This document shows positions 4,281-50,427 of a stretch of 64,000 nt of DNA, piece after piece (position 1 is the first letter of the stretch; each line of letters begins with the position of its first letter). The DNA is from an uncultured Candidatus Saccharibacteria bacterium (GTDB lineage: Bacteria > Patescibacteriota > Saccharimonadia > Saccharimonadales > JALRHH01). The translations under genes were made by a program, and so were the position numbers. The stretch lies in NCBI GenBank assembly GCA_964559915.1, contig CAZLJP010000002.1:130423-194422 (forward strand), given 5' to 3'. The notes under the pieces were generated by a model. The model saw only the letters and a list, made by a program, of their open reading frames with translations, had not been told where the DNA came from and did no database searches.

Positions 4281-4314
4281 AATACAAAACCGCTCAACCG
4301 AGCGGTTTTGTATT
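4281..4314. terminator. bidirectional intrinsic terminator between convergent rpmA and the HEXXH gene
   Basis: Perfect 15-bp stem: AATACAAAACCGCTC (4281-4295), loop AACC, GAGCGGTTTTGTATT (4300-4314). The A/T runs inside the arms give a U-tract on either strand. Confidence 0.8.
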
Positions 4315-5746
4315 ATGCGGCTTTATCGCTGGACTTTTGCAATTGCTTGACCCGCTCAACCAACTTTTCGGTCATAAATTCATGACCACTCGTGGTTCGA
4401 TAGTTCCTGAACATTTGCAATGAACCAGGGTTTTCCCTCTCTCGTTCCAATAAGAAGTTGGCGTACTCATCAAGTCGTTTGTCTAATGTTTCAGTATCAG
4501 TCCCCACCTGGGCATCATATAGACGTTTCAGAACACCATCAAAACCACCAAGGTGGTTGTATGCTTCGCGGCTAAAGGGGTTGCCCTGGTTTTCTATATA
4601 AGCCTTAGGAGTGGCCATCATGACTTCAAGCATATTCGATAAGCCAACATGGTTGGCAACTGCACCAAATATCTCAACCGTAGTTCCACCCTTCACATGG
4701 GACTCCATTTCTTCTACCAGAGAGTGGCCTGTGATAATTCTGTAATACTGGAAAAAGGCTTTCACGTCTTGATATCCATGATTATCGCCAGAAAAGTGCT
4801 CTGCACGCACCTCTTCAGCATTGATACCAAACGATAACTCGTTATCGACACTGATACCTCCTTGTGTGTGCGTGTATTCATGACTAAGTGCGGTTAAATC
4901 CCCTTTTAAGTATTCATCGGTATACCAATCTGTATTCTGGATAACGGTAGGGTCACGTAATTTCTCTGCCAATGCCATCGATATACACAGCGTACGAGTA
5001 CCGTTTAAATCCGTTACCCATGCTGGCGCAAGTGAACCATCAAACCCGAGCTCCTTAGCAAACTGTCCGGCGCGAACCTGCAGCCCCATTTTCCACGCCC
5101 GAACGTCACTACTCAAATTCTGTTGGGTGGCCAGCTCTGGGTCATCATATGGTAGCGAGTAGTCTGGTACAGCCACATCTAGCCCATGGAGCTGTGTTTG
5201 ATCTGCGATACTTAAGACTCTAATTTCGTATGGGTCTTCGTTGTCTGGTGTTATGCCCAGTTTGGTTTTAGCAGCATCAAGAAATCCGTTATGAATTATG
5301 TCGCTAACTTCTTTGGAAAGCTGCTTATCGGTATACTTTTCGTATACAGCTTGCTCGGCCTGGACATCATACCCTTTTTCGGCCTCAATCATAACAGATG
5401 CATCATGAAACATATCGCTATGTTTATGCGCCAAAAGCGCCATCGTATCAGTTATGAAAAGTTTTTCTTTGTATGCTTTGTGGTCCTTCTCGTCTTCGAC
5501 TCCTGCCCACCGCGAGGCAATACCTGCAAACACCAGCGAGCGACCTTCGTCATCAAACAACGACGGCTTGATGCCAAATTCCGCAATCAGATTTTTACCT
5601 GCTTCAGCGATTTCGGGACGAGCAGCAATCTCTGGAATATTTTGTGTCAATTCCGCCATAGACTGTTCAAAACGAATTGAACTCTCTTGCAGCATCTGCT
5701 GCTCTAAAGCAAGCTCTTCTTCGGGGGGTTTTGGAATTTCTGGCAT
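4313..5746 (-). CDS. hypothetical protein with HEXXH zinc-metallopeptidase motif (family not recognised)
   Basis: 477-aa ORF. H289-E-Y-T-H293 is encoded at 4868-4882, followed by E311/E312 (INAEEVRAEHF), a thermolysin-like spacing. It has no N-terminal signal peptide or TM segment. It has its own promoter-like and terminator elements. Confidence 0.6.
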   Translation of the reverse strand: MPEIPKPPEEELALEQQMLQESSIRFEQSMAELTQNIPEIAARPEIAEAGKNLIAEFGIKPSLFDDEGRSLVFAGIASRWAGVEDEKDHKAYKEKLFITDTMALLAHKHSDMFHDASVMIEAEKGYDVQAEQAVYEKYTDKQLSKEVSDIIHNGFLDAAKTKLGITPDNEDPYEIRVLSIADQTQLHGLDVAVPDYSLPYDDPELATQQNLSSDVRAWKMGLQVRAGQFAKELGFDGSLAPAWVTDLNGTRTLCISMALAEKLRDPTVIQNTDWYTDEYLKGDLTALSHEYTHTQGGISVDNELSFGINAEEVRAEHFSGDNHGYQDVKAFFQYYRIITGHSLVEEMESHVKGGTTVEIFGAVANHVGLSNMLEVMMATPKAYIENQGNPFSREAYNHLGGFDGVLKRLYDAQVGTDTETLDKRLDEYANFLLERERENPGSLQMFRNYRTTSGHEFMTEKLVERVKQLQKSSDKAA

Positions 5747-5811: not shown

Positions 5812-5837
5812 AAATACAAAACCACCCTGTTGGGTGG
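5812..5837 (-). terminator. intrinsic terminator after the response-regulator gene
   Basis: On the minus strand: CCACCC-AACA-GGGTGG (5822-5837) followed by UUUUGUAUUU (5812-5821). It begins 24 nt downstream of the stop at 5861. Confidence 0.55.
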
Positions 5838-5860
5838 CTTTAAGAATATCGTACTATTAT

Positions 5861-6268
5861 CTAAGCTATGCCGAGGTGGGCTTTGATGCGAGCTACCACA
5901 TCAGCGATAACAACTTGAGATTTGACCAGGTATTCATCTACGCCCAGGCCAATGGCACGTTCGCGGTCGCTTTCCTGGCTCAACGCGGTCAGCATGATAA
6001 TTTTGACGTTGGTTGTCTCTGGCGTGTTGCGCAGAATATCCAATACGTCAAAACCACTAACCTTGGGCATCATAACGTCCAGAATGATGAGATCAGGCTT
6101 ATATTCAATAGCGGCAGCGAGGGCTTCTTCACCGTTGGCAACACGACGTGTGTTCAGGCCTTCTGCCTCAAGGCGAGTCTGATACACGCTCGCAAGTGCA
6201 TCATCGTCTTCTACGAGGAGAATTTTTTTGTTACTTGCTGCGGGAGGTGGGGTTTGTTGTGGATCCAT
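5861..6268 (-). CDS. single-domain response regulator (CheY-like receiver only)
   Basis: Receiver-domain hallmarks are present: KKILLVEDDD, DLIILDVMMP (phospho-acceptor Asp), IIMLTA and DEYLVKS. I trimmed the track ORF (to 6400) to the ATG at 6266-6268 (MDPQQTPPPAASNKK...), because the longer form overlaps the pyrG 3' end. Confidence 0.8.
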   Translation of the reverse strand: MDPQQTPPPAASNKKILLVEDDDALASVYQTRLEAEGLNTRRVANGEEALAAAIEYKPDLIILDVMMPKVSGFDVLDILRNTPETTNVKIIMLTALSQESDRERAIGLGVDEYLVKSQVVIADVVARIKAHLGIA

Positions 6269-6287
6269 ACCGTTAATGCTACATGAT

Positions 6288-7995: not shown

Positions 7996-9219
7996 CTATT
8001 TATTCAAGGACTGGATAGCTGCGTCTTTTTGGGGGTCGCGGTTGTTCTTATAATCGTCGTCAGAGCGCTCGATTTTTTGGTCGGGTTCAATACCAATCTT
8101 GTCGATACCATTACCTTTTGGTGTAAACCAGTGAGCACTTGTTACCTTCAGTAAACTACCGTCTTGGAGGCGCTCTAACTGCTGTACGCTCCCCTTGCCA
8201 TAGCTCTTGGTGCCAATCAGGCTAGCCGAGCCGTTGTCTTTCAGGGCGCCAGCGGTGATTTCACTAGCCGAGGCACTACCTTCATTAATTAACACTACTG
8301 TTTTGATACCCTTTAGGACTGGGTTACCACTTGCCTTGAATGTCTTTACTACACGACCATCTTGTTTTTCTAATAGCACTGTCTGACTTGGGTCAAGCCA
8401 CAGGCTGGATACGCTGACAGCCGCATCCAACAAACCACCCGGGTCGCCGCGCAAATCCAGAATCACACCCTTCACATTGGCTGCTTTGAATGAGCTTGCT
8501 GCTTCGCGGGACAATTGAGCTGTATCTGGGCCAAAGCGACTAATAGTCATTAGGCCAATGTTACCTGGCAGAATTTCAGACTTTACACTAGGGATGGTGA
8601 TTTGTGTGCGTTTAATCTCGAGGTTTAACTCCTGACCACCACGTACAATCTTGAGTTTCACCGTGGTATTGGCCTCGCCCCGAATCTTATTTACCGCCTC
8701 GCTGATGCTCAAACCAGACGTACTCTTGTCGTCAACTTCTACGATTAAATCCTTAGCCTTGATACCGGCTTTCTCTGCGGGGAAACCGGCTATTGGCGAA
8801 ATCACTTGGATGTTACCATTAGCGTCCTTGCCTAGTTCGGCACCGATACCTGTGAATGAACCATTTAGTTCGTTATCAAACTCTTTGGCATCTTTGGCGT
8901 TAAAGAATTCGGTGTATGGGTCGCCTGTAGCTTGCGCCAAGCCTTGTTTCAGGCCATCAAGCAGCCGCCCATTATCCAAATCACCATCATATGAGTCACG
9001 TAATTTGTCGTAGATGGCTTCGACTGAGCTGTAATCAAGATTAGCGGGCAACGAAGCGTGTTGTGCGTTGTTCTTGGTCAATGAGGCCAGCAATGTGCCG
9101 TTACCTACCCCGATACCGAGTATAAATATCACTATAGCCGCAAAACTGCGGAATATGGTGCGCTTGAATCTGTTTGATTTTGGCTGTTTGGCTTTTGAAA
9201 TGTCTGCAAATGAAGTCAC
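7996..9219 (-). CDS. ctp: S41 family C-terminal processing peptidase with PDZ domain
   Basis: 407 aa with an N-terminal TM anchor, a PDZ-like segment (GIGAELG...ISPIAGFPAEKAGIKAKDLIVEVD), the catalytic-region GSASASEI motif and DLRGDPGG. Confidence 0.85.
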   Translation of the reverse strand: MTSFADISKAKQPKSNRFKRTIFRSFAAIVIFILGIGVGNGTLLASLTKNNAQHASLPANLDYSSVEAIYDKLRDSYDGDLDNGRLLDGLKQGLAQATGDPYTEFFNAKDAKEFDNELNGSFTGIGAELGKDANGNIQVISPIAGFPAEKAGIKAKDLIVEVDDKSTSGLSISEAVNKIRGEANTTVKLKIVRGGQELNLEIKRTQITIPSVKSEILPGNIGLMTISRFGPDTAQLSREAASSFKAANVKGVILDLRGDPGGLLDAAVSVSSLWLDPSQTVLLEKQDGRVVKTFKASGNPVLKGIKTVVLINEGSASASEITAGALKDNGSASLIGTKSYGKGSVQQLERLQDGSLLKVTSAHWFTPKGNGIDKIGIEPDQKIERSDDDYKNNRDPQKDAAIQSLNK

Positions 9220-21372: not shown

Positions 21373-22626
21373 TTATCTCAACTCAAGGATAGCCAAAGAT
21401 TCTATATGCGGGGTTTTAGGAAAGAAGTTGTACCCCGTAATACTAGCAATGTTGTATTTCCCTTGCAGTAATGCCAAATCACGAGCCTGCGTGATGGGAT
21501 TACAGCTCAGGTATATGAGTTTGGGTGGCAGAACCTCCAGGATTCTATCTGTTACCTTGCCGTGTAAGCCCGCTCTGGGTGGGTCTACGACCAAGACATG
21601 CTCACCGTCTATGTACTCCAACGCCTGTTCGGCTGGGGCTTCAATAATTTGTATGTTGGTACTGTCGCTATTTTGCCTAGCCATGGCACAGTTATGTACA
21701 TCTGATTCTATAAGTAGCCCTGCGCCACCAATCCCCAGACCAATTGTACCCACGCCACTATACATATCGATATATGCCGCCTCACCTACAGCCCGCTTAA
21801 TAGCGCCGAGTGCTTGATTAAATATCTCTACATTAACCTGAAAAAACGAGTGCACATCGTAATGAATCAACTTATCGCCAATGGTATCACCTAGTGATGT
21901 ATCACCGTAGTTATACAGCTCACGGGTCAGAACACTTGCCGGGCTTTTGGGGTTGGAATAGCACACAACTACGCCCTGGGCGGTGGCCTCTAGCTCTTCT
22001 AGCTTAGGAAATGATTCATCTTTGACGAATAAAGCCGCAACCGTTTGGCCAGCTTGGTTTGAACGTACGACCACCGTTTTGAGCTGCGAACCACGAATCC
22101 CGTGTTTGTTGAGGACCGCTACGATTTGATTGGCAGTTGTATCGACAGCCGAGAGCGCGATACTACTACCTGGTACGATGATTTTGCCATGCGTTCCTCT
22201 GTTGAATAACGCCAAATGAAGACCGTTATCATCTGCCCAAAAACTATATTCCATTTTGTTGCGGTAATGCCACTCTTGTTGGCCGGCCACCATTGGAATA
22301 TCGCCGCTGTAATCAACATGTTCGCGCCGCATGGTTTCGGTTAGGATTTCTTGCTTGTAAGTGTTTTCTGACTCAAAGGTAGTAATTTGCCAGGGGCTGG
22401 TACTCAGATACGCCTCGTCCCTGGGTACTTGTCTGTCGGGGCTGGGCTTGAGGATTTCCTCTGCCACACCCTCGATATGGCTTGATTTTGATTTGGTGAC
22501 ACGCAAGTTAACCGTTTCGCCTGGTAACGCATTCCATACAAAAGCACGCCGACCATCAGTCAGCGTGCCTATTGCTTGTCCACCATGAACAAGTTTTTCA
22601 ATGGTAAGGGTTTGGGTTGGTAGCAT
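21373..22626 (-). CDS. TRAM-domain RNA (uracil-5)-methyltransferase, TrmA/RlmD family
   Basis: 417 aa with an N-terminal TRAM-like beta barrel (IEKLVHGGQAIG...GETVNLRVTK). The C-terminal class I MTase region carries FFQVN, DMYSGVGTIG, VVDPPRAGL and YLSCNP motifs. The Fe-S cysteine cluster of RlmD is not evident. Confidence 0.8.
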   Translation of the reverse strand: MLPTQTLTIEKLVHGGQAIGTLTDGRRAFVWNALPGETVNLRVTKSKSSHIEGVAEEILKPSPDRQVPRDEAYLSTSPWQITTFESENTYKQEILTETMRREHVDYSGDIPMVAGQQEWHYRNKMEYSFWADDNGLHLALFNRGTHGKIIVPGSSIALSAVDTTANQIVAVLNKHGIRGSQLKTVVVRSNQAGQTVAALFVKDESFPKLEELEATAQGVVVCYSNPKSPASVLTRELYNYGDTSLGDTIGDKLIHYDVHSFFQVNVEIFNQALGAIKRAVGEAAYIDMYSGVGTIGLGIGGAGLLIESDVHNCAMARQNSDSTNIQIIEAPAEQALEYIDGEHVLVVDPPRAGLHGKVTDRILEVLPPKLIYLSCNPITQARDLALLQGKYNIASITGYNFFPKTPHIESLAILELR

Positions 22627-22629
22627 CTG

Positions 22630-23571
22630 CTACTTGTACAAACCAACAATCAAAACTACGGCAAGTGCTACTTTAGAAACAACACTTAGTAGATTGTATT
22701 TCTTATCGAGAGCAGCGTAGTTGAGAGCCTTGCCTTGTGCGCCAAGTGCAGTCCACTGCAAGCGTACAGTTCTAATCAATGTAACGGCTACGACTGCCGC
22801 TGCGGTGTATGCCCACCACGGAGAGCGAACAATGCCGTACACATAGCTAGCGTAGATAGTAGACGCCAGGATAGCCAATGGTAGCAATACTGCTAAAAGG
22901 CTAATGACATATAGAGACTTGCTGGGCTTGCCAGTGACAGCGTTCTCGCGCTCAAAGAGCCATGATGTCACAGCTGCAAGAACAATAAATACCATACCGA
23001 ACTTCAAAGCTGCTGCATCTTGCAGGCCGTTTAGAAGTGCAGCAATTTCAAATGCCAACGCACCGCTGACCGCAAAATCAATCCAACGAAGTGGTTGCAC
23101 GCCGGCCTTGATACCAGCGTCGTCTTTAGCCTTGAGGCGAGTGCCACGCAGCACAGAAAATACTGCCGCAAATGCCAGTAGTGCAACTAATACCCAACGA
23201 ATTTCTACTTCATAGAGTATGTGCGCGGCTGGTGCTAATACAGTAGTTGTGCGGCTTGCGAGCTCATCCTTAGCGAGATGGCCCAGCAACACTTGTGCTG
23301 AAAAATTATTCATAAGCACGCCGGCCAAAATAGCAGCAACAGCGAATACGCCGCCAAATGCCACATGTGGACGCTTAAGAAATGCTAACTTACCGGTTGT
23401 TGCCGGTTTGGTGGCCTTAGCAGTCGCCTTAACTGCCGGCTTCTTTGCCTTGGTTGTTTTTGCTGCCGTTGTGGCAACTGATTTCTTAGTTGTTTTTGCA
23501 GCCGCACGAGCAGCTGGCTTCTTTTTTGTAGTTTTGGTCTTTGCCTTGGTTGTAGGTTTAGATGTAGCCAT
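22630..23571 (-). CDS. heliorhodopsin-like seven-transmembrane protein with basic low-complexity N-terminal extension
   Basis: 313 aa. Residues 1-62 are almost only K/A/T/P, followed by seven hydrophobic segments. LRWIDFAVSGAL (helix 3) and YNLLSVVSKVALAVV (helix 7, K300) parallel the FRWVEYSLSSSVM and YIVLSLVAKSALAW segments I recall from heliorhodopsin 48C12. This has not been verified with a profile search. Confidence 0.6.
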   Translation of the reverse strand: MATSKPTTKAKTKTTKKKPAARAAAKTTKKSVATTAAKTTKAKKPAVKATAKATKPATTGKLAFLKRPHVAFGGVFAVAAILAGVLMNNFSAQVLLGHLAKDELASRTTTVLAPAAHILYEVEIRWVLVALLAFAAVFSVLRGTRLKAKDDAGIKAGVQPLRWIDFAVSGALAFEIAALLNGLQDAAALKFGMVFIVLAAVTSWLFERENAVTGKPSKSLYVISLLAVLLPLAILASTIYASYVYGIVRSPWWAYTAAAVVAVTLIRTVRLQWTALGAQGKALNYAALDKKYNLLSVVSKVALAVVLIVGLYK

Positions 23572-23617
23572 GCGAACAGTGTATCACATCTCTTGCCAGA
23601 GAGGAGTACCCCTACAT

Positions 23618-24100
23618 TTAGTCTAAGTTTTTATAGGGAATGTGGCACATGCCACGGCCAGTTCGCTCTGCAAATTTTTGATGATAGTCTTCTGCAGAAT
23701 AGAAAGTTTCTGCTGCTACAATCTGCGTAACAATTGGCTGATTGTATGTAGGCTGTAGTTCGTCTCGTACCTTTTCGGCCGTTTGTTTTTGGTCATCATC
23801 TACGTAAAAAATAGCTGAACGATATTGGTCACCGACATCAGGCCCCTGCCTGTTTAATTGAGTCGGGTCATGCAAACGGAAAAAGTGCCGAACCAAAACT
23901 TCATATGTCACCCGCTCTGAGTCAAACTCTAGATCCACCGCCTCGGCGTGGCCGGTGCCATGGCCGCAGACAGCTTCGTAAGTAGGGTTTTCTGTGTGAC
24001 CACCTATATACCCAACAGTACTTTTAGTGACTCCAGGTACCTGGTCAAGATAGTACTGTACACCCCAGAAGCAGCCAGCGGCAAAAATAGCTTTTTGCAT
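23618..24100 (-). CDS. msrA: peptide-methionine (S)-S-oxide reductase
   Basis: 160 aa with the catalytic AAGCFWGVQ motif at the N-terminus and conserved GHAEAV and YHQ segments. Confidence 0.92.
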   Translation of the reverse strand: MQKAIFAAGCFWGVQYYLDQVPGVTKSTVGYIGGHTENPTYEAVCGHGTGHAEAVDLEFDSERVTYEVLVRHFFRLHDPTQLNRQGPDVGDQYRSAIFYVDDDQKQTAEKVRDELQPTYNQPIVTQIVAAETFYSAEDYHQKFAERTGRGMCHIPYKNLD

Positions 24101-24102
24101 AC

Positions 24103-24405
24103 CTATTCCTGTACTTGTACGTCACGCCAGAACGCAACGTAATTGGTAAAATCTTTTTTGACTTGTTCGATAGCTGTTGGTAGTGGCTCTGGATATGCCC
24201 AAGCATTGTCCTGGCTGGTATTTGTACCATCAGTTACATTGAAATACTGGCAGACACCCTTCCACGGACAGGTATATGGAGTGTCGCTCTTGATTAGGAA
24301 GTCTTGGTTTACGCTGGTGGGCGGAAAGTACCAATTACCCTCTATATAAATAAGGTCTTCTTTAGGTGATTCGGCAATAACCGTGCCGTTCCAGATTGCT
24401 TTCAT
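24103..24405 (-). CDS. DUF427 domain protein
   Basis: 100 aa. AIWNGTVIAES...IEGNWYFP...CPWKGVCQYF...AWAYPEP follows the DUF427 pattern. It overlaps the upstream FMN reductase gene by 4 nt. Confidence 0.75.
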   Translation of the reverse strand: MKAIWNGTVIAESPKEDLIYIEGNWYFPPTSVNQDFLIKSDTPYTCPWKGVCQYFNVTDGTNTSQDNAWAYPEPLPTAIEQVKKDFTNYVAFWRDVQVQE

Positions 24406-24959
24406 GATTGATGCTCCTTTGTTTGTTTAAGTGTGCGTGCAAACCAAACTAACTCATCGTACAGAGCAGCTAGATTTTTCTGGTAGCGCTCACTCTGCTC
24501 TGGCTGTATCTCACCAGCCTCGTTGAACAACTCTTTGATGTGTGGAAAGTATAGCTCGGTATGGATATTAACCAAGCCCAGCCGATGACAAACGGGCAGC
24601 AACGCCTCACAGACGCGTACGCCACCCCACGAACCACCACTAACCCCGGCTATGGCCACTGGTTTGTGTAAATAATTGTCGTATTCGCTGTCTAACATAC
24701 GCTTGAGGCTACTTGGAATGCTGTGGTTGTATTCTGGCGTAACAATAATAAAAGCATCTGCTCGGGCAGTAATGTCAGAATAAACTGGGTCTTTTACATC
24801 CTCGCCTTCATCAAGTAAATGCAGTGTTTGTGGGTCTACCAAAACAAGCTCAATGTCTGGATAGTTTTTGGCAAAATCGGCTACATAATGTGCAGCCTTA
24901 ATGGACTCACGCTTGGCACGCACCGTCCCCACTAACAAAGCAATTGTAATGTCACTCAT
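24402..24959 (-). CDS. NAD(P)H-dependent FMN reductase family oxidoreductase
   Basis: 185 aa with a flavodoxin-like fold pattern: ITIALLVGTVR..., FIIVTPEYNHSIPSSLKRMLD. Confidence 0.8.
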   Translation of the reverse strand: MSDITIALLVGTVRAKRESIKAAHYVADFAKNYPDIELVLVDPQTLHLLDEGEDVKDPVYSDITARADAFIIVTPEYNHSIPSSLKRMLDSEYDNYLHKPVAIAGVSGGSWGGVRVCEALLPVCHRLGLVNIHTELYFPHIKELFNEAGEIQPEQSERYQKNLAALYDELVWFARTLKQTKEHQS

Positions 24960-24988
24960 TAGCTATAGTTTAGCATAAGCGAGCTAAC

Positions 24989-26518
24989 TCACTTCTCTAG
25001 ACGAAGGCGAGATAATAACCAATCACGTGGCAAAATACTAAGGAACCAGCCGGCACGCGGACCCGATGTCTGACCGATGGTCAAACGATACAAGGCCTGG
25101 AACAAGTCCTTTGGCCCAAGCTCATCTGATTTGAAATCATAAATCGCAAGGTGAAACCAGCCACCATCTGCATCGTCAGGAGCTTCAGCGATTTTGTCTG
25201 CCAGGCCGACAAAGAAGGCTTTTTCAGTATCAGTGAAAGCAGCCGCATCAATGGTATCCTGTAATGCAAACTTCACATCATCGGGTGCGTAATCTTGCAG
25301 CCATGCATCAATAAATTGCAGCTCACGTCGAATAATATCAGCTTCTTCTCGGGCTACGTCTGCATACTCCGTACGAGCTATAACTTCAATTGTTTTATCC
25401 GCGTCTTTCAGGGCAGCCTGATAACTGGCGACGAGATGCGTGAATGGTATGCGACTAACGGTTGGCGTATCAATGCCCTCTAGGCAGATAGCGAGCATCT
25501 GTTGCTCACTAGGTGTCTTTTCCGGCTTAGCCAGAAGTTCGCTAAACTCATCAAACAGCTTGATTAGACTGATGTCGGTATCAAAAAATAACTGTTTTGA
25601 TGGACTGTATCGCACCATAAAAAACCACACCAGCTCAGGCGGGAAAACACGTGTCAAATCAACGGCCGTGATTGTATCACCACCACTTTTACTCATCTTC
25701 TTAGTATTACCGGTCTTGTTTATGAAGTCATATGGGATAGGATACGGCGCATCAACACCATATACCTGCTTAGCAATTTCCAGGCCCGTATCATAAGAGC
25801 CGCCTTTGGTAGCATGATCACGACCAAATGGCTCCGCTTGTACATGTAGCAGCGACCAGCGCGCCGGCCAGTCTATGCGCCAGTTTAGTGTAACTTCACC
25901 GTGAGCATAGTTGGCATTTCGTGGCTGGCCATTCTTATCTTCATATGTGATTTCCTGGGTATCTTTTTGGATACTTATGAATCGGCGATTTTTCAGATAA
26001 CCGTCTTCTATAACTTGTATCGGTGACCACTGCTGATCGAGTTTGCGGCCTGAAACGTCTTCTAGAATATGCTTGATGGTGTCGATGTTGCCTAATGCCT
26101 GTTCTATGACTGATACAAAATAACCACTGCGATATTTTTCGTGAGCTCTGATGATTTCCATGTTAACCTTTAGAGTCTGAGCAACTTCAGGCAATTCTGC
26201 AACATAGTAATCAGCGTAGCTTTGATTAGAACCATCTGGCGCTGGGATATCACAAAGTGGCTTCCCTAGATATTGGCTATAACTTTCGTCCAAACCAACA
26301 GGGACTTTTCGGAATACATCAATATCATCCGATACATGAATATGAGGAGCGACTCGGCCACGGCGACGTAATTCGCGCGCAACCAATTCAGCTGTTAATA
26401 CCTCACGCAGTGTTCCTACATGATAAGCCCCAGAGGGCGAAACGCCCGAAGACACTACAATATCGCCCTCAGGATGTCGGGCGATGAGTGCATCTACGAT
26501 AGTATTAAGCCACTGCAT
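24989..26518 (-). CDS. lysK: lysine--tRNA ligase, class I
   Basis: 509 aa with a Rossmann-type class I signature: SPSGAYHVGTLREV (HIGH-like) and KMSKSGG (KMSKS). The length and layout match archaeal/spirochaete-type LysRS. Confidence 0.85.
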   Translation of the reverse strand: MQWLNTIVDALIARHPEGDIVVSSGVSPSGAYHVGTLREVLTAELVARELRRRGRVAPHIHVSDDIDVFRKVPVGLDESYSQYLGKPLCDIPAPDGSNQSYADYYVAELPEVAQTLKVNMEIIRAHEKYRSGYFVSVIEQALGNIDTIKHILEDVSGRKLDQQWSPIQVIEDGYLKNRRFISIQKDTQEITYEDKNGQPRNANYAHGEVTLNWRIDWPARWSLLHVQAEPFGRDHATKGGSYDTGLEIAKQVYGVDAPYPIPYDFINKTGNTKKMSKSGGDTITAVDLTRVFPPELVWFFMVRYSPSKQLFFDTDISLIKLFDEFSELLAKPEKTPSEQQMLAICLEGIDTPTVSRIPFTHLVASYQAALKDADKTIEVIARTEYADVAREEADIIRRELQFIDAWLQDYAPDDVKFALQDTIDAAAFTDTEKAFFVGLADKIAEAPDDADGGWFHLAIYDFKSDELGPKDLFQALYRLTIGQTSGPRAGWFLSILPRDWLLSRLRLEK

Positions 26519-26566
26519 TTGGATGTAGTATACAGCAAACTACCTCTGTTAGGAAGTAATTATAAT

Positions 26567-27025
26567 CTAAGAGATGTCAGTGATTTTATAAGCTGTAGTA
26601 TCGGCAGGAGTTTTGATTTCTACAGTATCGCCGACTGCTTTGCCTAGCAATGCCTGACCGATTGGTGATTCGTCAGAAATTTTGCCGCTGAGTGGATCGG
26701 CTTCAACGGTGCCTACAACCTGAAATTCTTTAGTCTTGCCGTCGCCCTTGAGCTTTACGGTTGAGCCTAAATGGACTTTGCTATCGCCTTTTGGTTTCTT
26801 GATAACTTCTACGTTATTGAGGATGTGTTCAACCTCTGAAATACGGGCTTCGAGCTTTTCTTGCTCTTGGCGTGCAGTTTGGTATTCAGCATTCTCTGAA
26901 AGATCACCAAACTCACGGGCGGTCTTAATTTTGTCGGCTACAACACTACGGTGGCCTATGAGCTCAGCAAGCTCTTTCTCTAGTTCATCAACACCAGTCT
27001 TGGTCAGATTAAATTTCTTGTTCAT
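26567..27025 (-). CDS. greA: transcription elongation factor GreA
   Basis: 152 aa with an N-terminal coiled coil carrying the acidic tip (REFGDLSENAEYQTARQEQ) and a C-terminal FKBP-like domain (VGDTVEIKTP). Confidence 0.92.
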   Translation of the reverse strand: MNKKFNLTKTGVDELEKELAELIGHRSVVADKIKTAREFGDLSENAEYQTARQEQEKLEARISEVEHILNNVEVIKKPKGDSKVHLGSTVKLKGDGKTKEFQVVGTVEADPLSGKISDESPIGQALLGKAVGDTVEIKTPADTTAYKITDIS

Positions 27026-35703: not shown

Positions 35704-36375
35704 CTACTGGTTCTCTAAGCCTTCGATGACCGCCAGGTATTCTACATTGTCACTTGGGCTCGCTGTATCATAATAAGCGCGTAGCACTAAATCTTCAGAG
35801 TCATTGTCATAGTAGACTTTTGCGGAAACACCTTTTATATCTTCCGTCGAGGCGATGTACACATTGAGGTTGTCGGTATTCAAGTTATCACGATTAATGT
35901 GCTGCAACACCGTGTCATCGTATTTTGCTTTCTCGGTGGTCGTTGTCCCCGGTGTAGGTACTAGGCTTATGCCTCTGCCTAATGGCAGCATAAACAACCC
36001 GCCAGAACTACGTTTATGAGTCTTCTCCGTATCAACAGTAAATGTCTCTTCCTTGATTACACTCGAAGAGTCTGCATTGGGCTCATAGACCATATGAGCA
36101 GCTGCAACCTGCTCGTCTGTAAAGTCCAGCCCCTTGATTGTTACTCTCTCGCCTGATGCAAGAGTCAGATGCGTGCCTTGCTTCTTTAGCATGTCCTTTG
36201 TTTCAAGACGAATTTCTTGAGCCTGGTGGTTGTCTTCTATCTTTTCATGGATTCCAGCGCCAGCAAGGCCCGCCACCATTAGTCCAAGAGCCGCCAATCG
36301 GCCGGAAGCCCTTGGCTCTCTTGCTTGAGATGTATTATTTTTTTCAAAAGTTTCGTGATTATTTTTGCTACGCAC
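35704..36375 (-). CDS. hypothetical N-terminally anchored exported protein
   Basis: 223-aa ORF with one TM segment (LAALGLMVAGLAGAGI). The remainder is hydrophilic with no motif I recognise. Confidence 0.45.
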   Translation of the reverse strand: MRSKNNHETFEKNNTSQAREPRASGRLAALGLMVAGLAGAGIHEKIEDNHQAQEIRLETKDMLKKQGTHLTLASGERVTIKGLDFTDEQVAAAHMVYEPNADSSSVIKEETFTVDTEKTHKRSSGGLFMLPLGRGISLVPTPGTTTTEKAKYDDTVLQHINRDNLNTDNLNVYIASTEDIKGVSAKVYYDNDSEDLVLRAYYDTASPSDNVEYLAVIEGLENQ

Positions 36376-40245: not shown

Positions 40246-41013
40246 TTATACTGTTTTGTCACCCCAGTCAGAGAAGACCAGGATTACCACAATCACAGCA
40301 AACATAATGAACATCACTTGCCGCTTTACCAAATCAGTCAGACGGTCTGACTCATCCAGATAGTACATGCCGGCAATGCTAAAACCCAGAACTGATGAAA
40401 GTAACGCTGGCTGTGGAATAACACCGTAGAACAACAGCCAATGGCTGAGTAGCCAAGCCAGGGCGGCATTAAAATAGGCCCAGACTTGCGCATACAGCGG
40501 CCCGTATTCATCCTCAAAGCTCGTAAAGAAGTGACGCGCCGAAACATAGGCAATCAACCAGCTGCCCAAGACAATGCCAAAGATTGGTGCCTCCGTCCAG
40601 GCAATATACAGTGCCACTAGACCAAGTGCCTGGCTGATACATGCCTGTACAGAAACAGACAACACGCTGGAACCGGGCTTAATAAAGACTAGCCACACGC
40701 TGTAAGCTGCTGCCCACAGCAGCTGATACATGCCGTTGGTGGTATGATCCATAAAGACAACGACCGATACGCCAACAATAATATCAACTGCGTTAGCAGT
40801 AATATTTGTCAGCCAGTAGCGAGGGCGGACTGCAAACATACGCCACTTGCTTAGGAGAATTAACGCGATTGCCGCTTGTACAAAACCACCTTCTAATCGC
40901 ACTAAGACATAGACAATAACCGGCAAGAAAGTGGTTAACCCTATGTGGAAATAATGCGAATAGCCCTGGGCTGGCTTTATCTTGGTATGAAGTTTACTGG
41001 CTAGTGCTCTCAT
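40246..41013 (-). CDS. hypothetical polytopic membrane protein
   Basis: 255 aa with about 8 hydrophobic segments. It overlaps the upstream LCP gene by 20 nt. No family recognised. Confidence 0.5.
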   Translation of the reverse strand: MRALASKLHTKIKPAQGYSHYFHIGLTTFLPVIVYVLVRLEGGFVQAAIALILLSKWRMFAVRPRYWLTNITANAVDIIVGVSVVVFMDHTTNGMYQLLWAAAYSVWLVFIKPGSSVLSVSVQACISQALGLVALYIAWTEAPIFGIVLGSWLIAYVSARHFFTSFEDEYGPLYAQVWAYFNAALAWLLSHWLLFYGVIPQPALLSSVLGFSIAGMYYLDESDRLTDLVKRQVMFIMFAVIVVILVFSDWGDKTV

Positions 41014-45105: not shown

Positions 45106-48100
45106 TTACCGTACCTGCATCCTTACGCTGTTAATTTGCATAGTAGTGATGGTATTACCATCCTTACAGACCAGACGTACTAGTACCTCGGCTTTAGCAT
45201 CGTTTTCTATCTGGAACCAGTCACTCTTCAGAGCGCCCGTCCTGTCAGTGGCCAGGTTGCCAGTGGCGGTCAGGTCTTGCCAGCTCGGGTTGTTATCGGT
45301 CAGAGCATATTGCAACTTGCAGCTCGCACCTTGTGGTGCGGCAGTACTGATATTTGCCAAGAGCCTTACCTGGTTCGCATTACCCAGATCAACCCATGTA
45401 CGGTGTTCACCTGGCAGCTCAGTCTCATTGGCTGGTTGCTGCCAAGCCAAGGTTTCGCTCGCCAAGCTGTATTCGCTAAAGGCCGTTTGTAGACAATCTT
45501 GCCACTTGTCGTTCTGATAGCAGCGGAACTTATTCATCTTGCTGTTGTAGTACTGCGCACCATTGACTCCGGCTGGATCACCGTCACTGCTCTTGGTATC
45601 CAGGACAAATAGCACTGTTTTGCCATTGTTGCCAGCGCCAATCTTAACCTTGCCAGTGAGAGTATCAACATTAAGCGCGTTATCGCCGTTAGCTGACTTC
45701 ACTGCCAGAGCGTTGGTACTATCGAGTTTCAACTCCAGAGCACCAGAGTTGAACACGGTGAATACACCATTGCCGTCCTTGGTGAGTGTCAGGAGATTTG
45801 CATTGCCGGTGGCGGTCAGGCTGATGGACTGTGCGCCGATTGATGTCACGCCGCTCAGAGCGCCAACACCAGTTATGCCGCCGTTATTGTTACTTAATCC
45901 ACCGACTATTGATGCGCCACCAGAAGTCATGTTCAGGCCAGTTATATTCTGCAGTACACCGGTATTTGTTAGTCGTAGGTCGCCGCCAGTTGTAACACTG
46001 CTGAGTACTGCGTTGCCCTGGCTATCCAGTTTCTTAGCAATCTCGGATGTAGCTTTAAGCGTGTAGATGTTCAAAGCATCGTACCTCACGTGCCAGTAGC
46101 CGTACTCGTCCTGATAAGTTAGTTCTGGGAAGACGGAGCCCAGCTGCTGAGCCAATACACCGGTCTGGTGTTCGGTGTCACAAGAGGTATTTGACTGCTG
46201 GAAGTATGCGTTGTCACAAGCAAAATCGAAGGTTACAGTTTCAATATCTTTAATCTTATCAAGTACGTTGTCGTCGAGTGACAAGATGTTTGTCTTGAGC
46301 CGCTGGTCAGATAGACCAACACCCGAACAAGCACTGTAGCCAGTGATAATACCACCACTCACCACCGCCTGGTTGAGATACTGGTTGTTGCCACAAGTTA
46401 CGGTAATACCACTTACGCCATTTCGCTGGTACACACCAGTGGTGTTGATGTTACCTGATGCCGAGATTGTAGTGATGCCGCTCAGAGCACCAGCCGAGCT
46501 AACATCAAGCCCAGTCGAACTGATTGAGAAGGCATTACTGCCGCCGCCAAGAGTAATCGCTCCTGTACTTGTACCTGTGTTGATATTGACCGCGTTGTTG
46601 GCATTGGTGTTGAAGTTAATAGCACCGACTGCTGTTAGCCCGCCAGTTAGCGATGTTAGACCATTGCTAACGGTCAGCGTATTTGTACCGGTTATAGTTG
46701 TTGCACCGTTCAGAGATATAGCGCCTGTACCGGTACCGAAGGTGCCCGTACCACTGATAGAGAAGTTACCACTGCTCTGTGTAAATCCAGTTATTCCACT
46801 AAGCGCACCACTGTTGATGATTAGGCCGTTGATGGTATTTGTAGCTGTTGCACCGGTGATGGCGCCAGATAAGCTCAACGTTGTTACGCCGCTCAGAGCA
46901 CCAGCAGATGAAACATCAAATGCGGTTGAGTCTATCGTCAGGGCATTGCTGCCACCACCGATTGTAATAGCACCAGTACCTGTTACAGAATGGGCACCAC
47001 TTGTTTGGCTAAATCCTGTGATGCCACTCAAGCTGCCGCTATTGACGCTCAAACCGTTGATAGTATTGGTTGTGTTGGCACTGATGGTACCACTTGCGGT
47101 AACACTGGTGATTCCTGATAGTGCACCAGCAGATGAAACATCGAAGTTGGTCGAATCAATGGTCAGTGCGTTGCTGCCACCACCAAGCGTGATAGCACCG
47201 GTGCCAGTCACCGAGAAGGCACCACTTGTTTGGCTGAAGCCGGTGACAGCGCTCAGACTACCGGCATTGATAATCAGGCCGTTAATGGTGTTGCTGGCAG
47301 TCGGAGCAGAAATAGCACCACTAGCAGATATCGTAGTTGCGCCTGTAATTGCTCCGCTTAGGCCGAGTGAAGTACCGCTAATCGAACCAGCGCCAGTGAT
47401 GTTACCACCGCCGAGCGCCAAGTTGCCACTACTGAAAGTGATGCCCGTCACACCACTTAGTGCACCGCTATTGATGCTGAGGCCGTTAATCGTATTGCTG
47501 GTAGAAGCCGTTATGGAGCCAGAGGCGGTTATAGAAGTTACCCCAGCTAATGAGCCAGCATTGATTATGCCGCCATTTGCCAAGTTCAAGCTGCCGCTCG
47601 TAAATGTCAGGCCAGTGACCCCCGTAATTGTTCCAGCACCAGTGATGCCGCCGCCATTATTCGTGATGCCACCGTTACTAACTATCAGGCCACCGCCGGC
47701 AGTGATTGTTTGAGCGGCAGATGTTTGCAAATTGCCCAATATATTAACAGTTGAAGACGCGTTACCAATACTCAGCGTTGTTGCTGCACCACCAATGTTA
47801 AGCGTAGTCACATTTGTATTGAGCAGGTCAAAGCTGGTAAGGCTCGTTTCTATGCTGTTTTCGTTGTAATAGGTGGTGCCGTTACCGGTTGCGACGCCCG
47901 CAATGAAGTAGCCTCGCCCAAAACGATTTGTCAGTGTCGAACCAGTGTCAGTGCCACCAATCTCGGGGATGTAATACTCTGTCAAGCTTGCACCGTTAGA
48001 CCAAGTCAGATTTGGCGTGATGCTCAGAGCAGAGGCAGTTTTGCTCGTGATTTTGGCATACGTTCCATTAACCAGAACGTAGTTTCCTACATCAAAGTTG

Positions 48101-50427
48101 GCAGTATTGCCCGAACCGACTTGTATAGTGCCTGGCGCCAAGCCACTACCACTAGTGGCGGTTGCAGAGCCATCAAGCTGACGGAAAGTAGTTGTGAGAC
48201 TGCCGTTAGCGTCTATCTTCAACGCATCATTGGTCCCGATGGTAAGCGTGCCGCTCACATCTAAGTCACCACTGAGATTCACGTTATCAAGCAATTCAAT
48301 CGTGCTACCAGCATCCAGTCGAATCTGGCCTGTGCCGGTGAGCGAGATATTGTTATTACTGCCTGTAGTCGTTATCTGTAGTGTGCCACCGTTCGTGACA
48401 AGTGGGGTTGTGACTGAGGTAGCAAAGCTAACAGCAGCCTTGGTATCTAGTGCGTTACAAGTGCCGCCGCTGCCCAGCGTGATAGCATTGCCGGTGCCGC
48501 TCAGGTTGCCCGTGCCACTTGGACATGTGAGCGTTGTATCACCACGAACTGCAGACGTACTTGATGAACCATAGTTGACCGCAAGACCAATACTGCCTGC
48601 GCCATTGGTAATGGTAAGACCGCCACTGTTTGTCAGCCCAGCTAATGTATAGCCCGAACCGTTGCCAATCAGTAACTGGCCGTTTGCAGCTGCGGAACCA
48701 TTTACCCCTGTACCGCCACGAGCCACCCCAAGTGTACCGGTGGTGATAATCGCAGCATCGAGTGAGGTGGTGCCGGCAACCGTTAAGCGACCTTGGGCAT
48801 CAACAGTGAAGGTCGGAATTGTGGTAGTTGAGCCGTAACTACCTGGCGAAACAGCTGTGTTAGCCAGGCCAAGCACGCCAGCATTGTTTGTTAGACCAGT
48901 GCCGGTTAAGTCAGTAAAGCCTTCGCCGTTAATCGTTAGCGTATCGCCTGCGCCAAAGGTAATCCCGCCGTTGGCCGTGATAAGACCTGCTACACCAAGC
49001 GTACCGGTCAGGTTCGCGGTATTACTGATAGTCTGGCCGTTGATTGCACCAGAGGTGGTGAGGGTTGTGAAACTCGGATTAGCACTGAAGTTAATGTTCA
49101 GTGTTCCACCCAGTGCCACACTGCCATCACCGCTCAGATTACTACCATAGTTCAGGTTGATTGAACTGTTCTGCAAAGCAGCATTGGCCAGATTACTAAT
49201 GGCTACGTTGCCGGCAGCTGTCAGGCGACCTTGGGCATCAACCGTAAAGCTCGGTACAGATGTGCTCGAACCATAGCTACCTGCCGAAACAGCGGTATTT
49301 GCTAAACCAAGCACTCCAGCATTATTCACTAGACCGGTACCCGTCAAATCAGTAAAGTTCTCGCCATTGAAGGTGAAGGTGTCACCTGCCTCAAGTGTGA
49401 GACCACCGTTGAGCGTAGTCAGACCAGTTACCGTTAGAGTACCAGTCAGGTTGGCCGTTGCGTCTATGTCCTGGCCGTTGATTGCACCAGATGTGATAGT
49501 GCCGCTGGTGCTCAAATTACCACTGGCATCGATTTGTAGTGCGTCACTTGTGCCGACGGTGAAGAGCGCGGCTGGGGTGGTATCACCCACGCCTATATTG
49601 CCATTGGCCAGTATGGTGAATTTCTCGGTGTTATTGGTTATAAACCGTAGGGCGTAATTATCGGTGGTACCGAGGACACCGTCAGCACCAAAGGTACTAC
49701 CGTTCTGCATGAACGCCAAACCACCACCGCTACAAGTGGTTGTCAAACAGATGGTGCCAGAGGCATCCGGAAGTGTATACGTTCGGTTGTTCGTCAGTGT
49801 GCCAAAGTCCAGCGTACCAGTAAAGCCACCGACTGTTTTTTGTAAATTGGTCGCGGTGGTGGCTATACCGGCCCTCAGCGCATACGGCACCGCCGTTAGC
49901 TTGATACGTGGTGTCATTTCACCGTCACCATTGACGTTCATGGTCAGCCACTTTTCCTGCGACCAATCGATGGTGCCAGAGAACGGTGTCACACTGCCCA
50001 GATTGGCACTGAAGTAACCGTTCTTGACGCTGACCGTCTCTGTTTCGGTCCATTCGTTGGTGCCACTAGTGACTGCGTCGTACAGCTTGAACTGGATACT
50101 GTAACTGCCGTCATCAACCAGTGAACCACCACTGTTCAGCAGACGACCCTGGAAGTTGAGCGTGCTCGATGTAGCCGCATATACGCGCGCACTCTCGCCC
50201 GCGCGCGTATATGAATATACAGTCGCTAACAGGGGTGAAACGACCAAAACAAAAATGACTCCAACCAACCATTGTGTAATGGTGTTTGGAGTCGAGCGTC
50301 TGCGTACTCGCGTATACGCAAAACGTGGCCGTTTATGGCCAAAAATAAGGTCAGTCACCTTGTATTTTTGTTTGTTTTGTTTTTGGTTGTTAGTCGAAGC
50401 AGTAGCCTTTTTGACTATCGTTTCCAC
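45106..50427 (-). CDS. giant membrane-anchored tail-fibre-like surface protein with internal peptidase-S74 (intramolecular chaperone/autoprotease) domain
   Basis: 1773 aa with a basic N-terminus plus TM segment (WLVGVIFVLVVSPLLATV). The N-terminal domain reads LNFQGRLLNSGGSLVDDGSYSIQFKLYDA...TPRIKLTAVPYALRAG, as seen in tail-fibre-domain proteins. Long G/T/S/N-rich beta-repeat arrays follow. The S74 signature GLSDQRLKTNILSL...VTFDF...GVLAQQL is at residues ~1371-1470. Confidence 0.8.
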   Translation of the reverse strand: METIVKKATASTNNQKQNKQKYKVTDLIFGHKRPRFAYTRVRRRSTPNTITQWLVGVIFVLVVSPLLATVYSYTRAGESARVYAATSSTLNFQGRLLNSGGSLVDDGSYSIQFKLYDAVTSGTNEWTETETVSVKNGYFSANLGSVTPFSGTIDWSQEKWLTMNVNGDGEMTPRIKLTAVPYALRAGIATTATNLQKTVGGFTGTLDFGTLTNNRTYTLPDASGTICLTTTCSGGGLAFMQNGSTFGADGVLGTTDNYALRFITNNTEKFTILANGNIGVGDTTPAALFTVGTSDALQIDASGNLSTSGTITSGAINGQDIDATANLTGTLTVTGLTTLNGGLTLEAGDTFTFNGENFTDLTGTGLVNNAGVLGLANTAVSAGSYGSSTSVPSFTVDAQGRLTAAGNVAISNLANAALQNSSINLNYGSNLSGDGSVALGGTLNINFSANPSFTTLTTSGAINGQTISNTANLTGTLGVAGLITANGGITFGAGDTLTINGEGFTDLTGTGLTNNAGVLGLANTAVSPGSYGSTTTIPTFTVDAQGRLTVAGTTSLDAAIITTGTLGVARGGTGVNGSAAANGQLLIGNGSGYTLAGLTNSGGLTITNGAGSIGLAVNYGSSSTSAVRGDTTLTCPSGTGNLSGTGNAITLGSGGTCNALDTKAAVSFATSVTTPLVTNGGTLQITTTGSNNNISLTGTGQIRLDAGSTIELLDNVNLSGDLDVSGTLTIGTNDALKIDANGSLTTTFRQLDGSATATSGSGLAPGTIQVGSGNTANFDVGNYVLVNGTYAKITSKTASALSITPNLTWSNGASLTEYYIPEIGGTDTGSTLTNRFGRGYFIAGVATGNGTTYYNENSIETSLTSFDLLNTNVTTLNIGGAATTLSIGNASSTVNILGNLQTSAAQTITAGGGLIVSNGGITNNGGGITGAGTITGVTGLTFTSGSLNLANGGIINAGSLAGVTSITASGSITASTSNTINGLSINSGALSGVTGITFSSGNLALGGGNITGAGSISGTSLGLSGAITGATTISASGAISAPTASNTINGLIINAGSLSAVTGFSQTSGAFSVTGTGAITLGGGSNALTIDSTNFDVSSAGALSGITSVTASGTISANTTNTINGLSVNSGSLSGITGFSQTSGAHSVTGTGAITIGGGSNALTIDSTAFDVSSAGALSGVTTLSLSGAITGATATNTINGLIINSGALSGITGFTQSSGNFSISGTGTFGTGTGAISLNGATTITGTNTLTVSNGLTSLTGGLTAVGAINFNTNANNAVNINTGTSTGAITLGGGSNAFSISSTGLDVSSAGALSGITTISASGNINTTGVYQRNGVSGITVTCGNNQYLNQAVVSGGIITGYSACSGVGLSDQRLKTNILSLDDNVLDKIKDIETVTFDFACDNAYFQQSNTSCDTEHQTGVLAQQLGSVFPELTYQDEYGYWHVRYDALNIYTLKATSEIAKKLDSQGNAVLSSVTTGGDLRLTNTGVLQNITGLNMTSGGASIVGGLSNNNGGITGVGALSGVTSIGAQSISLTATGNANLLTLTKDGNGVFTVFNSGALELKLDSTNALAVKSANGDNALNVDTLTGKVKIGAGNNGKTVLFVLDTKSSDGDPAGVNGAQYYNSKMNKFRCYQNDKWQDCLQTAFSEYSLASETLAWQQPANETELPGEHRTWVDLGNANQVRLLANISTAAPQGASCKLQYALTDNNPSWQDLTATGNLATDRTGALKSDWFQIENDAKAEVLVRLVCKDGNTITTMQINSVRMQVR
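46480..47700 (-). repeat. in-frame tandem coding repeats (~68-76 aa TINGL units) inside the 1773-aa gene
   Basis: The DNA motif ATTGA...CCGTT(G/A)AT recurs with CCGTT at 46826, 47054, 47279 and 47483 (periods 228, 225 and 204 bp). CCAGCAGATGAAACATC recurs at 46901 and 47126. The protein unit is TNTINGLxxNSGxLSxxTGFSQTSGAxSVTGTGAITxGGGSNALTIDSTxFDVSSAGALSG. Outer boundaries are approximate. Confidence 0.6.

Follow-up and report, generated by a model that had tools for sequence, protein, structure and literature searches.

The 64,000-nucleotide stretch of contig CAZLJP010000002.1 analysed here (the window), from an uncultured Candidatus Saccharibacteria bacterium, encodes a heliorhodopsin (HeR) that is a true and very divergent member of its fold family, and that bears a disordered polybasic N-terminal tail on its predicted cytoplasmic side. 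We consider it reasonably likely that this protein is a retinal-dependent light sensor, loaded with exogenous retinal, whose tail contacts a polyanionic partner. The gene and its two parts are laid out as follows:

22630..23571, minus strand: complete coding sequence of the divergent heliorhodopsin, 313 amino acids plus stop, with an ATG start, from the open reading frame (ORF) listing and its translation

22633..23376, minus strand: seven-transmembrane (7-TM) heliorhodopsin domain, residues 66-313, from Foldseek and from AlphaFold2 (AF2) helices with a predicted local distance difference test (pLDDT) score above 90

23377..23571, minus strand: predicted cytoplasmic, disordered, polybasic K/T/A-rich tail, residues 1-65, with AF2 pLDDT of 46-65 and no secondary structure

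Profiles, solved structures and the structural model agree on the family. Pfam Heliorhodopsin (PF18761) matches residues 68-309 over positions 4-239 of a 242-position model (E=6e-15; 55.7 bits against a gathering threshold of 26.7), and phmmer against PDB chains returns heliorhodopsins only, led by the E108D mutant of TaHeR (7clj, 1.1e-10) and followed by wild-type TaHeR (4e-10) and 48C12 (about 5e-3). The AF2 model, built from 49 homologues (pLDDT 86.9, predicted TM-score 0.78), has seven TM helices (68-86, 124-143, 160-180, 186-213, 218-245, 252-282 and 285-312) and, in the first extracellular loop (ECL1, the AB loop), the beta-hairpin typical of HeRs (strands 91-101 and 112-123). When this model is compared with the PDB by Foldseek, the top 10 matches are heliorhodopsin chains throughout; it overlays TaHeR 6is6 with E=1.5e-11, a TM-score of 0.86 and a root-mean-square deviation (rmsd) of 2.2 Å over 243 columns, and K300 aligns with the Schiff-base lysine. 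With the AF2 helix boundaries, a positive-inside tally places 31 Lys and Arg residues on the cytoplasmic side against 4 outside, or 10 against 4 without the tail, which predicts an inverted topology with a cytoplasmic N-terminus and an external C-terminus and fits the orientation that defines HeRs.

An earlier, sequence-only reading of this DNA, made without database searches, had named the gene a heliorhodopsin-like 7-TM protein with an N-in topology and a cytoplasmic tail, and the significant profile match, the seven modelled helices, the superposition with K300 in register and the charge tally all bear it out. Its strand, start codon and 313-residue translation are reproduced exactly, as are its codon positions for D165 (23077-23079) and K300 (22672-22674), and the four 48C12 segments that it cites are correct, all being present when the protein is aligned by HMMER with solved 48C12 chains. 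Identity as a type-1 rhodopsin was considered and ruled out: Bac_rhodopsin is not among the Pfam matches of the protein even at E<=10, type-1 structures enter the Foldseek results only at E-values of at least 5e-3 and with rmsd above 7 Å, TM7 carries SxxxK rather than DxxxK, and the charge distribution is N-in.

Residues were mapped onto the references by three alignments (phmmer against each of 48C12 and TaHeR, and a MAFFT alignment of 226 sequences including both), which are concordant apart from a one-residue shift in TM1. Clade counts come from a combined family alignment of 224 sequences, within which 74 full-length members make up the close clade of the window HeR. The residues at the heart of the putative chromophore site are these:

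22672..22686, minus strand: S296-V-V-S-K300, the TM7 SxxxK motif with the presumed Schiff-base lysine, placed by all three alignments

23077..23079, minus strand: D165, an aspartate at the counterion position (E107 of 48C12, E108 of TaHeR), a conservative change placed by all three alignments

23083..23088, minus strand: R162-W163 of TM3, equivalent to R104-W105 of 48C12, kept, with concordant alignments

23065..23067, minus strand: S169, equivalent to S111 of 48C12 and S112 of TaHeR, kept, at a position reported to compensate an aspartate counterion

K300 corresponds to K241 of 48C12 and K238 of TaHeR, and S296 to S237 and S234 respectively; lysine is found at the K300 position in 70 of the 74 close-clade members and arginine in 4. 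The TM3 Arg-Trp pair is invariant in 100/100 word-seeded matches, is nearly so in the combined alignment (R 216/224, W 220/224), and its tryptophan is kept by all 74 members of the close clade. Where glutamate would be expected as the single TM3 counterion, the window HeR has aspartate. The sequence-only reading was right that the aspartate is there; its view of this residue as unusual holds only against canonical HeRs, since 56 of 74 members of the protein's own clade have Asp and 18 have Glu. Engineered E107D (48C12) and E108D (TaHeR) mutants retain their pigment with an unchanged spectrum, S112 compensating for the change (bioRxiv 10.1101/2020.06.24.168591), and because these mutants keep the chromophore, an aspartate counterion should be compatible with pigment formation in the window HeR as well. 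The E108D structure (7CLJ) is also the best-scoring solved chain and pairs its Asp with S112 as the window HeR does with S169, but it is a laboratory mutant of a Glu-type HeR, whereas Asp is the natural majority in the window clade. At the S169 position, 71 of the 74 clade members have threonine.

Kovalev et al. (PMC7049168) provide a reference set of residues described as highly conserved across all HeRs, including His23 and His80, and measured against it the window HeR keeps some residues and replaces others. Compared with canonical TaHeR (6IS6) and 48C12 (6SU3, 6UH3), it shares the fold, the N-in orientation, the ECL1 hairpin, Arg-Trp, SxxxK and a single acidic counterion; E149, Q213 and Y226 of 48C12 are kept as E207, Q272 and Y285, E230 is conservatively changed to D289, and the cytoplasmic polar cluster of E207, Y285 and D289 is retained. 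It differs from them in being only 20-22% identical, in having Asp for Glu, in its 65-residue polybasic tail and in the replacement of both histidines of the Schiff-base cavity (H23 by F76 or A77, H80 by S139), at which positions the clade has F/Y/L and A. Also replaced are S76 (A135), Y92 (D150), N101 (Q159), M115 (A173), M141 (A199), I142 (A200), W173 (L232), F206 (L265) and W246 (V305). With V305 and V306 at the W246 and Q247 positions, the extracellular half is hydrophobic, like that of other HeRs. Within the clade the mapped pocket positions are steady (A200 in 74/74, L265 in 66/74). By these alignments, the remodelling affects the histidine pair and the beta-ionone side of the pocket and leaves the Schiff-base core intact.

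HMMER was run exhaustively with the TM domain alone as query (E<=1e-3), and this search, which carries no bias towards tailed proteins, defines a subfamily of 391 cluster representatives. Identity of its TM domain to 48C12 and TaHeR is 20-22%, against 46% between those two references; the subfamily is deep-branching and is shown to occur in Saccharibacteria. The available text of earlier surveys reports 98 rhodopsins of Candidate Phyla Radiation (CPR) genomes inferred as HeRs and counts 80 HeRs for Saccharimonadia (Chiriac et al. 2022, PMC9166423), and it describes a Patescibacteria-dominated HeR cluster, C17 (Bulzu et al. 2021, PMC8612252), to which our subfamily probably corresponds. Saccharibacterial HeRs having already been published, the family assignment itself is therefore not new, and the window HeR has both family and host lineage in common with the published Saccharimonadia proteins. 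In the same available text, the commonest TM7 motifs of CPR HeRs are SLVAK, SLIAK and SFVAK, whereas SLVAK never occurs in the close clade, where the motif reads SVVSK, SVVTK or AVVSK. The tail, the Asp counterion, the missing histidines and the lysine losses treated below are undescribed in the searchable text of PMC8612252 and PMC9166423; within the searchable literature, we have not found the divergence of the subfamily or its Asp majority described either.

Retention of the lysine is not universal in the subfamily. Its repeated loss is seen among the top representatives: of the 147 that align at the Schiff-base position, 30 carry R, L, V, T, A, Q, I, Y or S instead. At the counterion position, G, S, Y, F, L, V, A, T, N, K, I, M or Q stands in 46 of 150. 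The four K300R proteins of the close clade (P0046, P0041, P0042 and P0050) form one subclade, which has also gained A173F, V261F, V297F and V269Q at mapped pocket positions; this looks like pocket filling following a natural loss of the chromophore. P0046 is encoded at 8001-8957 of a related locus, L005, in the conserved syntenic slot and with its tail retained. That members with arginine fill the pocket argues that lysine-bearing members such as the window HeR keep an occupied one, and such occupancy is probable on this comparison. In a separate clade of 22 representatives, including P0196, P0204 and P0233, the counterion position is occupied by Y, F, A, V or L, yet the TM7 lysine is kept in 22/22; any Schiff base formed there would lack an acidic counterion and need an anion or a different chemistry.

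The tail is the second distinguishing feature of the protein. Residues 1-62 comprise 18 K, 16 A, 16 T and 4 P, and the 87% K/A/T/P thus counted agrees with the 62-residue extension picked out by the sequence-only reading; residues 1-67 contain 21 Lys and Arg and no Asp or Glu. That reading had called the tail unusual and histone-H1-like. It is unusual relative to canonical HeRs but not within its own clade, all 74 full-length members of which are tailed, and the H1 label stands for composition only. Like the C-terminal domain of histone H1 and similar tails, it is Lys/Ala-rich, acid-free, disordered and strongly cationic; unlike them, it is Thr-rich (26%) and Pro-poor (6%), lacks S/TPKK motifs, matches no histone or DNA-binding profile and is joined to a 7-TM domain rather than to a DNA-binding fold. 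H1-like Lys/Ala-rich tails occur in bacteria on mycobacterial HupB, chlamydial Hc1 and AlgP. Residues 1-65 have no significant match in Pfam, NCBIfam or the PDB, the only weak ones being to an H2B-H2A chimera (E=0.25, non-significant) and DUF6465 (E=0.83), and a homology search with the tail alone gave 155 word-sharing candidates of which none could be scored, the query being of low complexity and the database large.

Across the subfamily, tails are common and old. A tail of at least 35 residues (mostly 40-110, up to about 130), rich in K/T/A/S and beginning MA(T/K)...KAKTKTTKK, is present in roughly two thirds of the 150 top representatives, and such tails are recovered even when the TM domain alone is the query. 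On a rough neighbour-joining tree rooted on 48C12 and TaHeR, tails run from base to crown, and by this tree the tail is ancestral to the subfamily. A genome-wide compositional bias as its source was ruled out, as no comparable polybasic stretch is present in any other ORF of the window (64 kb) or of a further 144 kb from related loci, 208 kb together. Well over 100 diverged homologues, all beginning with M-A, keep the frame open over 40-110 codons, and every orthologue has 65 or more stop-free codons there, with stops across the tail region in both of the other sense-strand frames; the next in-frame methionine, M87, lies inside TM1. The tail is therefore translated. Two other arrangements were tried and rejected: a downstream start using AAGG as Shine-Dalgarno sequence, for which there is no in-frame ATG, GTG or TTG ahead of M87, and a programmed -1 frameshift at A_AAA_AAG (codons 15-17), a heptamer missing from L004, L005 and L006 and leading into frames that hit stops. 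Beyond codon 20, Ala and Thr third positions and the Lys AAA:AAG ratio (1:1) match those of the TM domain, with no enrichment of A or C; the composition arises from codon positions 1 and 2, and K/T/A is therefore selected at the protein level.

N-terminal additions to HeRs have precedents. The available text of Bulzu et al. 2021 (PMC8612252) distinguishes ten N-terminal variants, ntv1-10, with Znf-HeR as ntv1, and the window-type tail may be among the undescribed ntv2-10. As set out in that text, Znf-HeR and MORN-HeR resemble the window HeR in having a cytoplasmic N-terminal extension, taken as a hint of downstream signalling. They differ in that theirs are small folded domains of narrow lineages (6 and 36 sequences), while the window tail is disordered and ancestral to 391 representatives.

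The start of the gene has its own peculiarities, which center on two elements:

23578..23586, minus strand: TG-A-TACACT, a putative extended -10 element ending 6 nucleotides (nt) ahead of the ATG

23531..23547, minus strand: AAGGCAAAGACCAAAAC, 17 nt over codons 9-14 (K-A-K-T-K-T), constrained at synonymous sites

In 13/13 tail-bearing orthologous loci, a TGn plus TAnnnT box lies 6 nt ahead of the ATG, or 7 nt in a single locus; the arrangement is seen at the same place in L002-L010 and L013-L016. There is no Shine-Dalgarno sequence upstream of the ATG at 23571 or in those 13 loci, and a generic sigma-70 scan around the start finds no -35/-10 pair because the -35 box is absent; from this layout, the tailed genes probably have leaderless mRNAs. 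In the tail-less relative L012 (1278-2030; 32% identity), the -10 box precedes a 13-nt leader that has AAGGA as its Shine-Dalgarno sequence. In the loci sampled, tail and leaderless arrangement go together. Between the MsrA stop codon and the HeR promoter (23591-23605, minus strand), we also observe an inverted repeat, CTCTCTGGCAAGAGA, which has no T-run, is not conserved in L003-L006 and may be a weak terminator or operator.

In codons 9-14 the nucleotides themselves are frozen. In 12 non-redundant orthologues, Ala10 is GCA in 12/12, Lys13 is AAA in 12/12 and Lys9 is AAG in 11/11; by contrast, in the TM domain, where synonymous sites are saturated, 24 invariant amino-acid columns have a top codon in at most 7/12. 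The AAGGCAAAGACCAAAAC motif is present in a single copy per locus, always at the 5' end of the HeR gene. Such constraint argues that the conserved 'peptide motif' of the tail is at least in part an RNA- or DNA-level signal. RNAalifold gives zero conserved pairs in the first 90 nt, and a conserved 5' RNA structure was rejected, the single-sequence z-score of -2.07 reflecting GC-rich Ala-codon hairpins that are not conserved. When viral contigs were scanned for the 17-nt motif, the 23 matches lay in unrelated contexts throughout. One of the viral contigs, L039 (IMGVR_UViG_3300048575_000449, about 11075, minus strand), has a 106-aa open frame that contains MAKTSKAKTKTSQKRK, encoded by the identical 17-nt motif, and then continues into an unrelated domain; this occurrence is probably a coincidence.

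It is conceivable, if on the whole unlikely, that the tail is a device for biogenesis or expression, either locking the N-in topology or providing an unstructured A/C-rich 5' region for leaderless translation, with its expansion merely tolerated. This would account for the leaderless look of every tailed gene beside the Shine-Dalgarno leader of tail-less L012, for the synonymously frozen codons 9-13, for a 5' region free of conserved structure in a tail-coding RNA that is 67% A+C, and for a tail length that varies as widely as 40-110 residues. CA-rich downstream regions do boost translation of leaderless mRNAs in E. coli. Against this, synonymous constraint is limited to about the first 15 codons, and past codon 20 the lack of third-position A/C enrichment points to selection on the protein; the loops alone already give a bias of 10 to 4, canonical HeRs are N-in without such a tail, and 40-110 residues far exceed what initiation or topogenesis needs. 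Such a role is in any case compatible with light sensing, and the two are not mutually exclusive.

In the light-sensor reading that we prefer, all-trans retinal, not made by the cell and taken from its host or surroundings, would bind at K300, and D165 together with S169 would stabilise the protonated Schiff base. The protein would then act as a slow-cycling sensor or regulator and not as a pump, and characterised prokaryotic HeRs show no ion transport (PMC7049168). Its acid-free polybasic tail, kept for composition, would serve as a cytoplasmic electrostatic tether or effector arm with a polyanion as partner, be it nucleic acid, the ribosome or anionic lipid, and light-driven changes on the cytoplasmic face would be relayed to that partner through the tail. 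Expression would come from the gene's own extended -10 promoter, placed for a leaderless mRNA. As to the chromophore, the sequence-only reading had seen no retinal-synthesis genes in the window, and indeed no carotenoid- or retinal-synthesis Pfam domain occurs among the window ORFs; nor does Pfam annotation of these ORFs reveal a second rhodopsin. The rhodopsin-bearing Saccharibacteria studied by Jaffe et al. 2022 (PMC9296517) lack retinal synthesis, and their type-1 rhodopsins (SacR) load exogenous, probably host-derived, retinal within seconds. Host-derived retinal for the window HeR would be consistent with that work and with the lack of synthesis genes in the window. SacR and the window HeR have in common their phylum and, as proposed here, the lack of retinal biosynthesis and the exogenous chromophore; they differ in that SacR proteins are DTS-motif outward proton pumps of opposite topology, whereas the window HeR has no type-1 profile match.

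Several observations weigh against this reading. The NCBIfam equivalog for 'HeR' (NF038020) scores 62.7 bits (E=3.5e-17), below its cut-off of 100; the protein is homologous, yet too divergent for automatic naming, which is probably why it has no name in public sources, where an identical protein is present on other contigs. The beta-ionone side is heavily changed (M115A, M141A, I142A, W173L and F206L) and His23 and His80 are gone, and retinal binding is therefore not assured. The K300-D165 geometry is predicted from alignment and superposition, and retinal binding in the subfamily at large is likewise a prediction from sequence and model. Nothing in the profile searches of the tail, nor any S/TPKK motif, ties it to nucleic acid, and the constraint at RNA level on its best-conserved part weakens the case for a conserved peptide motif. 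The adjacency of MsrA and RlmD-type genes, described below, may merely reflect synteny of the whole block. Finally, Arg orthologues persist intact, with the tail and in the same slot, and at least part of the function is therefore independent of retinal.

This last observation leads to the possibility that the protein is an opsin-like scaffold that works without retinal, its role residing in the tail and the cytoplasmic face and its lysine not being used for a Schiff base. The K-to-R orthologues speak for it, as do the non-Lys Schiff-base columns (30/147) and non-acidic counterion columns (46/150) of the wider subfamily, the remodelled beta-ionone pocket with its missing histidines, and a window without retinal-synthesis genes. 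We regard it as doubtful. The window HeR's own clade keeps the lysine in 70 of 74 and an acidic counterion in 74 of 74, and the only clade members that lack the lysine have also filled the pocket with Phe, as would be expected only if the pocket is normally occupied. The missing synthesis genes are no argument either, since the type-1 rhodopsins of Saccharibacteria use exogenous retinal (PMC9296517).

A light-driven or light-gated ion transporter, comparable to type-1 pumps or to proton-transporting viral heliorhodopsins, is very improbable. The rhodopsin fold, the lysine and the acidic counterion would suit it, and a saccharibacterial type-1 rhodopsin does pump protons (PMC9296517), but profile and fold both separate the window HeR from type-1 proteins (no Bac_rhodopsin match at E<=10; structures at E-values of at least 5e-3 and rmsd above 7 Å), TM7 reads SxxxK and not DxxxK, the extracellular half is hydrophobic with V305/V306 at W246/Q247, and characterised prokaryotic HeRs show no transport (PMC7049168). 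It is hardly credible that the tail is an annotation artefact, with a true start downstream and the K/T/A stretch untranslated: the missing Shine-Dalgarno sequence at the 23571 ATG and the low complexity might suggest it, but M87 lies inside TM1, the frame is open for 40-110 codons in more than 100 homologues that all begin M-A, the other sense frames carry stops in every orthologue, and the conserved extended -10 box is fixed at 6-7 nt from the ATG.

The gene sits in a conserved block of housekeeping genes. A scan of a species-level genome collection with the full protein was swamped by low-complexity KTKTTKKK and left one true locus, in a "Candidatus Saccharibacteria" metagenome-assembled genome whose neighbouring genes are collinear with the window and 71-80% identical. 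A metagenome contig scan with the TM-only alignment gave only 6 loci. The organism is a Saccharibacteria (CPR) bacterium. Synteny was compared over nine loci, L001 (identical to the window), L003-L006 and L013-L016, and the block reads GreA, LysRS, (FMN reductase), DUF427, MsrA, HeR, and onward RlmD-type RNA methyltransferase, RsmE, trypsin-like protease, PD-(D/E)XK, SerRS, hibernation factor and SecA. The immediate neighbours, given for context only, are:

23618..24100, minus strand: MsrA, peptide methionine sulfoxide reductase, upstream neighbour (PF01625)

21373..22626, minus strand: RlmD/RumA-type RNA (uracil-5-)methyltransferase, downstream neighbour (PF01938 and PF05958)

MsrA adjoins the HeR gene in the window/L001, L002, L004, L005, L014, L015 (divergently) and L016, lies one or two genes off in L003 and L006, and is absent from the fetched part of L013. 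The gap between HeR and methyltransferase is 3 nt in the window, 3-12 nt across the window/L001, L003, L004, L013 and L014, widening to 160-190 nt in L005 and L016; the two genes are probably co-transcribed. Such conserved housekeeping synteny marks the HeR gene as a vertically inherited core gene, and the neighbours are weak evidence for its function. An oxidative-stress role has been proposed for published HeRs, as the available text of those studies has it, and MsrA, FMN reductase and NUDIX genes lie near the window HeR. HeR proteins are 51-63% identical between genomes, against mostly 72-83% for MsrA, GreA and LysRS (LysRS 56% in L004); HeR evolves faster than its housekeeping neighbours (23618-27025).

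Other features of these loci are recorded for completeness. LysRS is of class I (PF01921) in the window (24989-26518, minus strand) and in L001, L003, L004, L013 and L015, and its slot is held by a class II-type synthetase of about 503 aa (PF00152 and PF01336) in L005 (3938-5455), L006 (1-1396), L014 (1-1074) and L016 (1-744), which looks like in-place displacement of one synthetase class by another. Three giant minus-strand ORFs, with a Peptidase_S74 chaperone domain (45106-50427, 1773 aa), Kelch repeats (52586-58792, 2068 aa) and a CBM_4_9 domain (59264-63811, 1515 aa), are probably surface or attachment proteins of the episymbiont. Pfam gives no match at E<=1e-5 for six window ORFs, 150-477 aa long (4313-5746, 5834-6286, 35704-36375, 40246-41013, 50746-51507 and 51694-52581), and Rfam and tRNA scans of the window gave no matches.

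A bolder version of the light-sensor reading would make the subfamily, in Saccharibacteria and probably CPR-wide, a photoreceptor and effector in one protein, whose tail acts as a reversible membrane tether for nucleic acid or ribosomes, so that light or host retinal modulates the nucleoid or translation. We think this improbable as it stands. Were it true, lineages without the lysine would keep constitutive tethering, a cell with almost no regulatory machinery would have direct light control, and heliorhodopsins would gain a concrete output, which has been a long-standing question.

Overall, the subfamily forms a distinct variant, at odds with several supposedly 'universal' HeR traits, namely the Glu counterion, His23 and His80. 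Heliorhodopsins are abundant, and the published hints at their output draw on gene neighbourhoods and a few rare domain fusions (Zn-ribbon, MORN); the polybasic arm is a far more widespread fusion, specific to the HeR gene and ancestral to hundreds of sequence clusters, and in pointing to a testable class of partners, the polyanions, it offers a lead on what heliorhodopsins signal to. The gene also illustrates cleanly a probably leaderless arrangement combined with a 5' coding motif under synonymous constraint. Orthologues that naturally have Arg for Lys and a filled pocket are ready controls for telling functions that need retinal from those that do not. For CPR biology, the window HeR would be a second retinal-dependent protein that must rely on a chromophore from the host.

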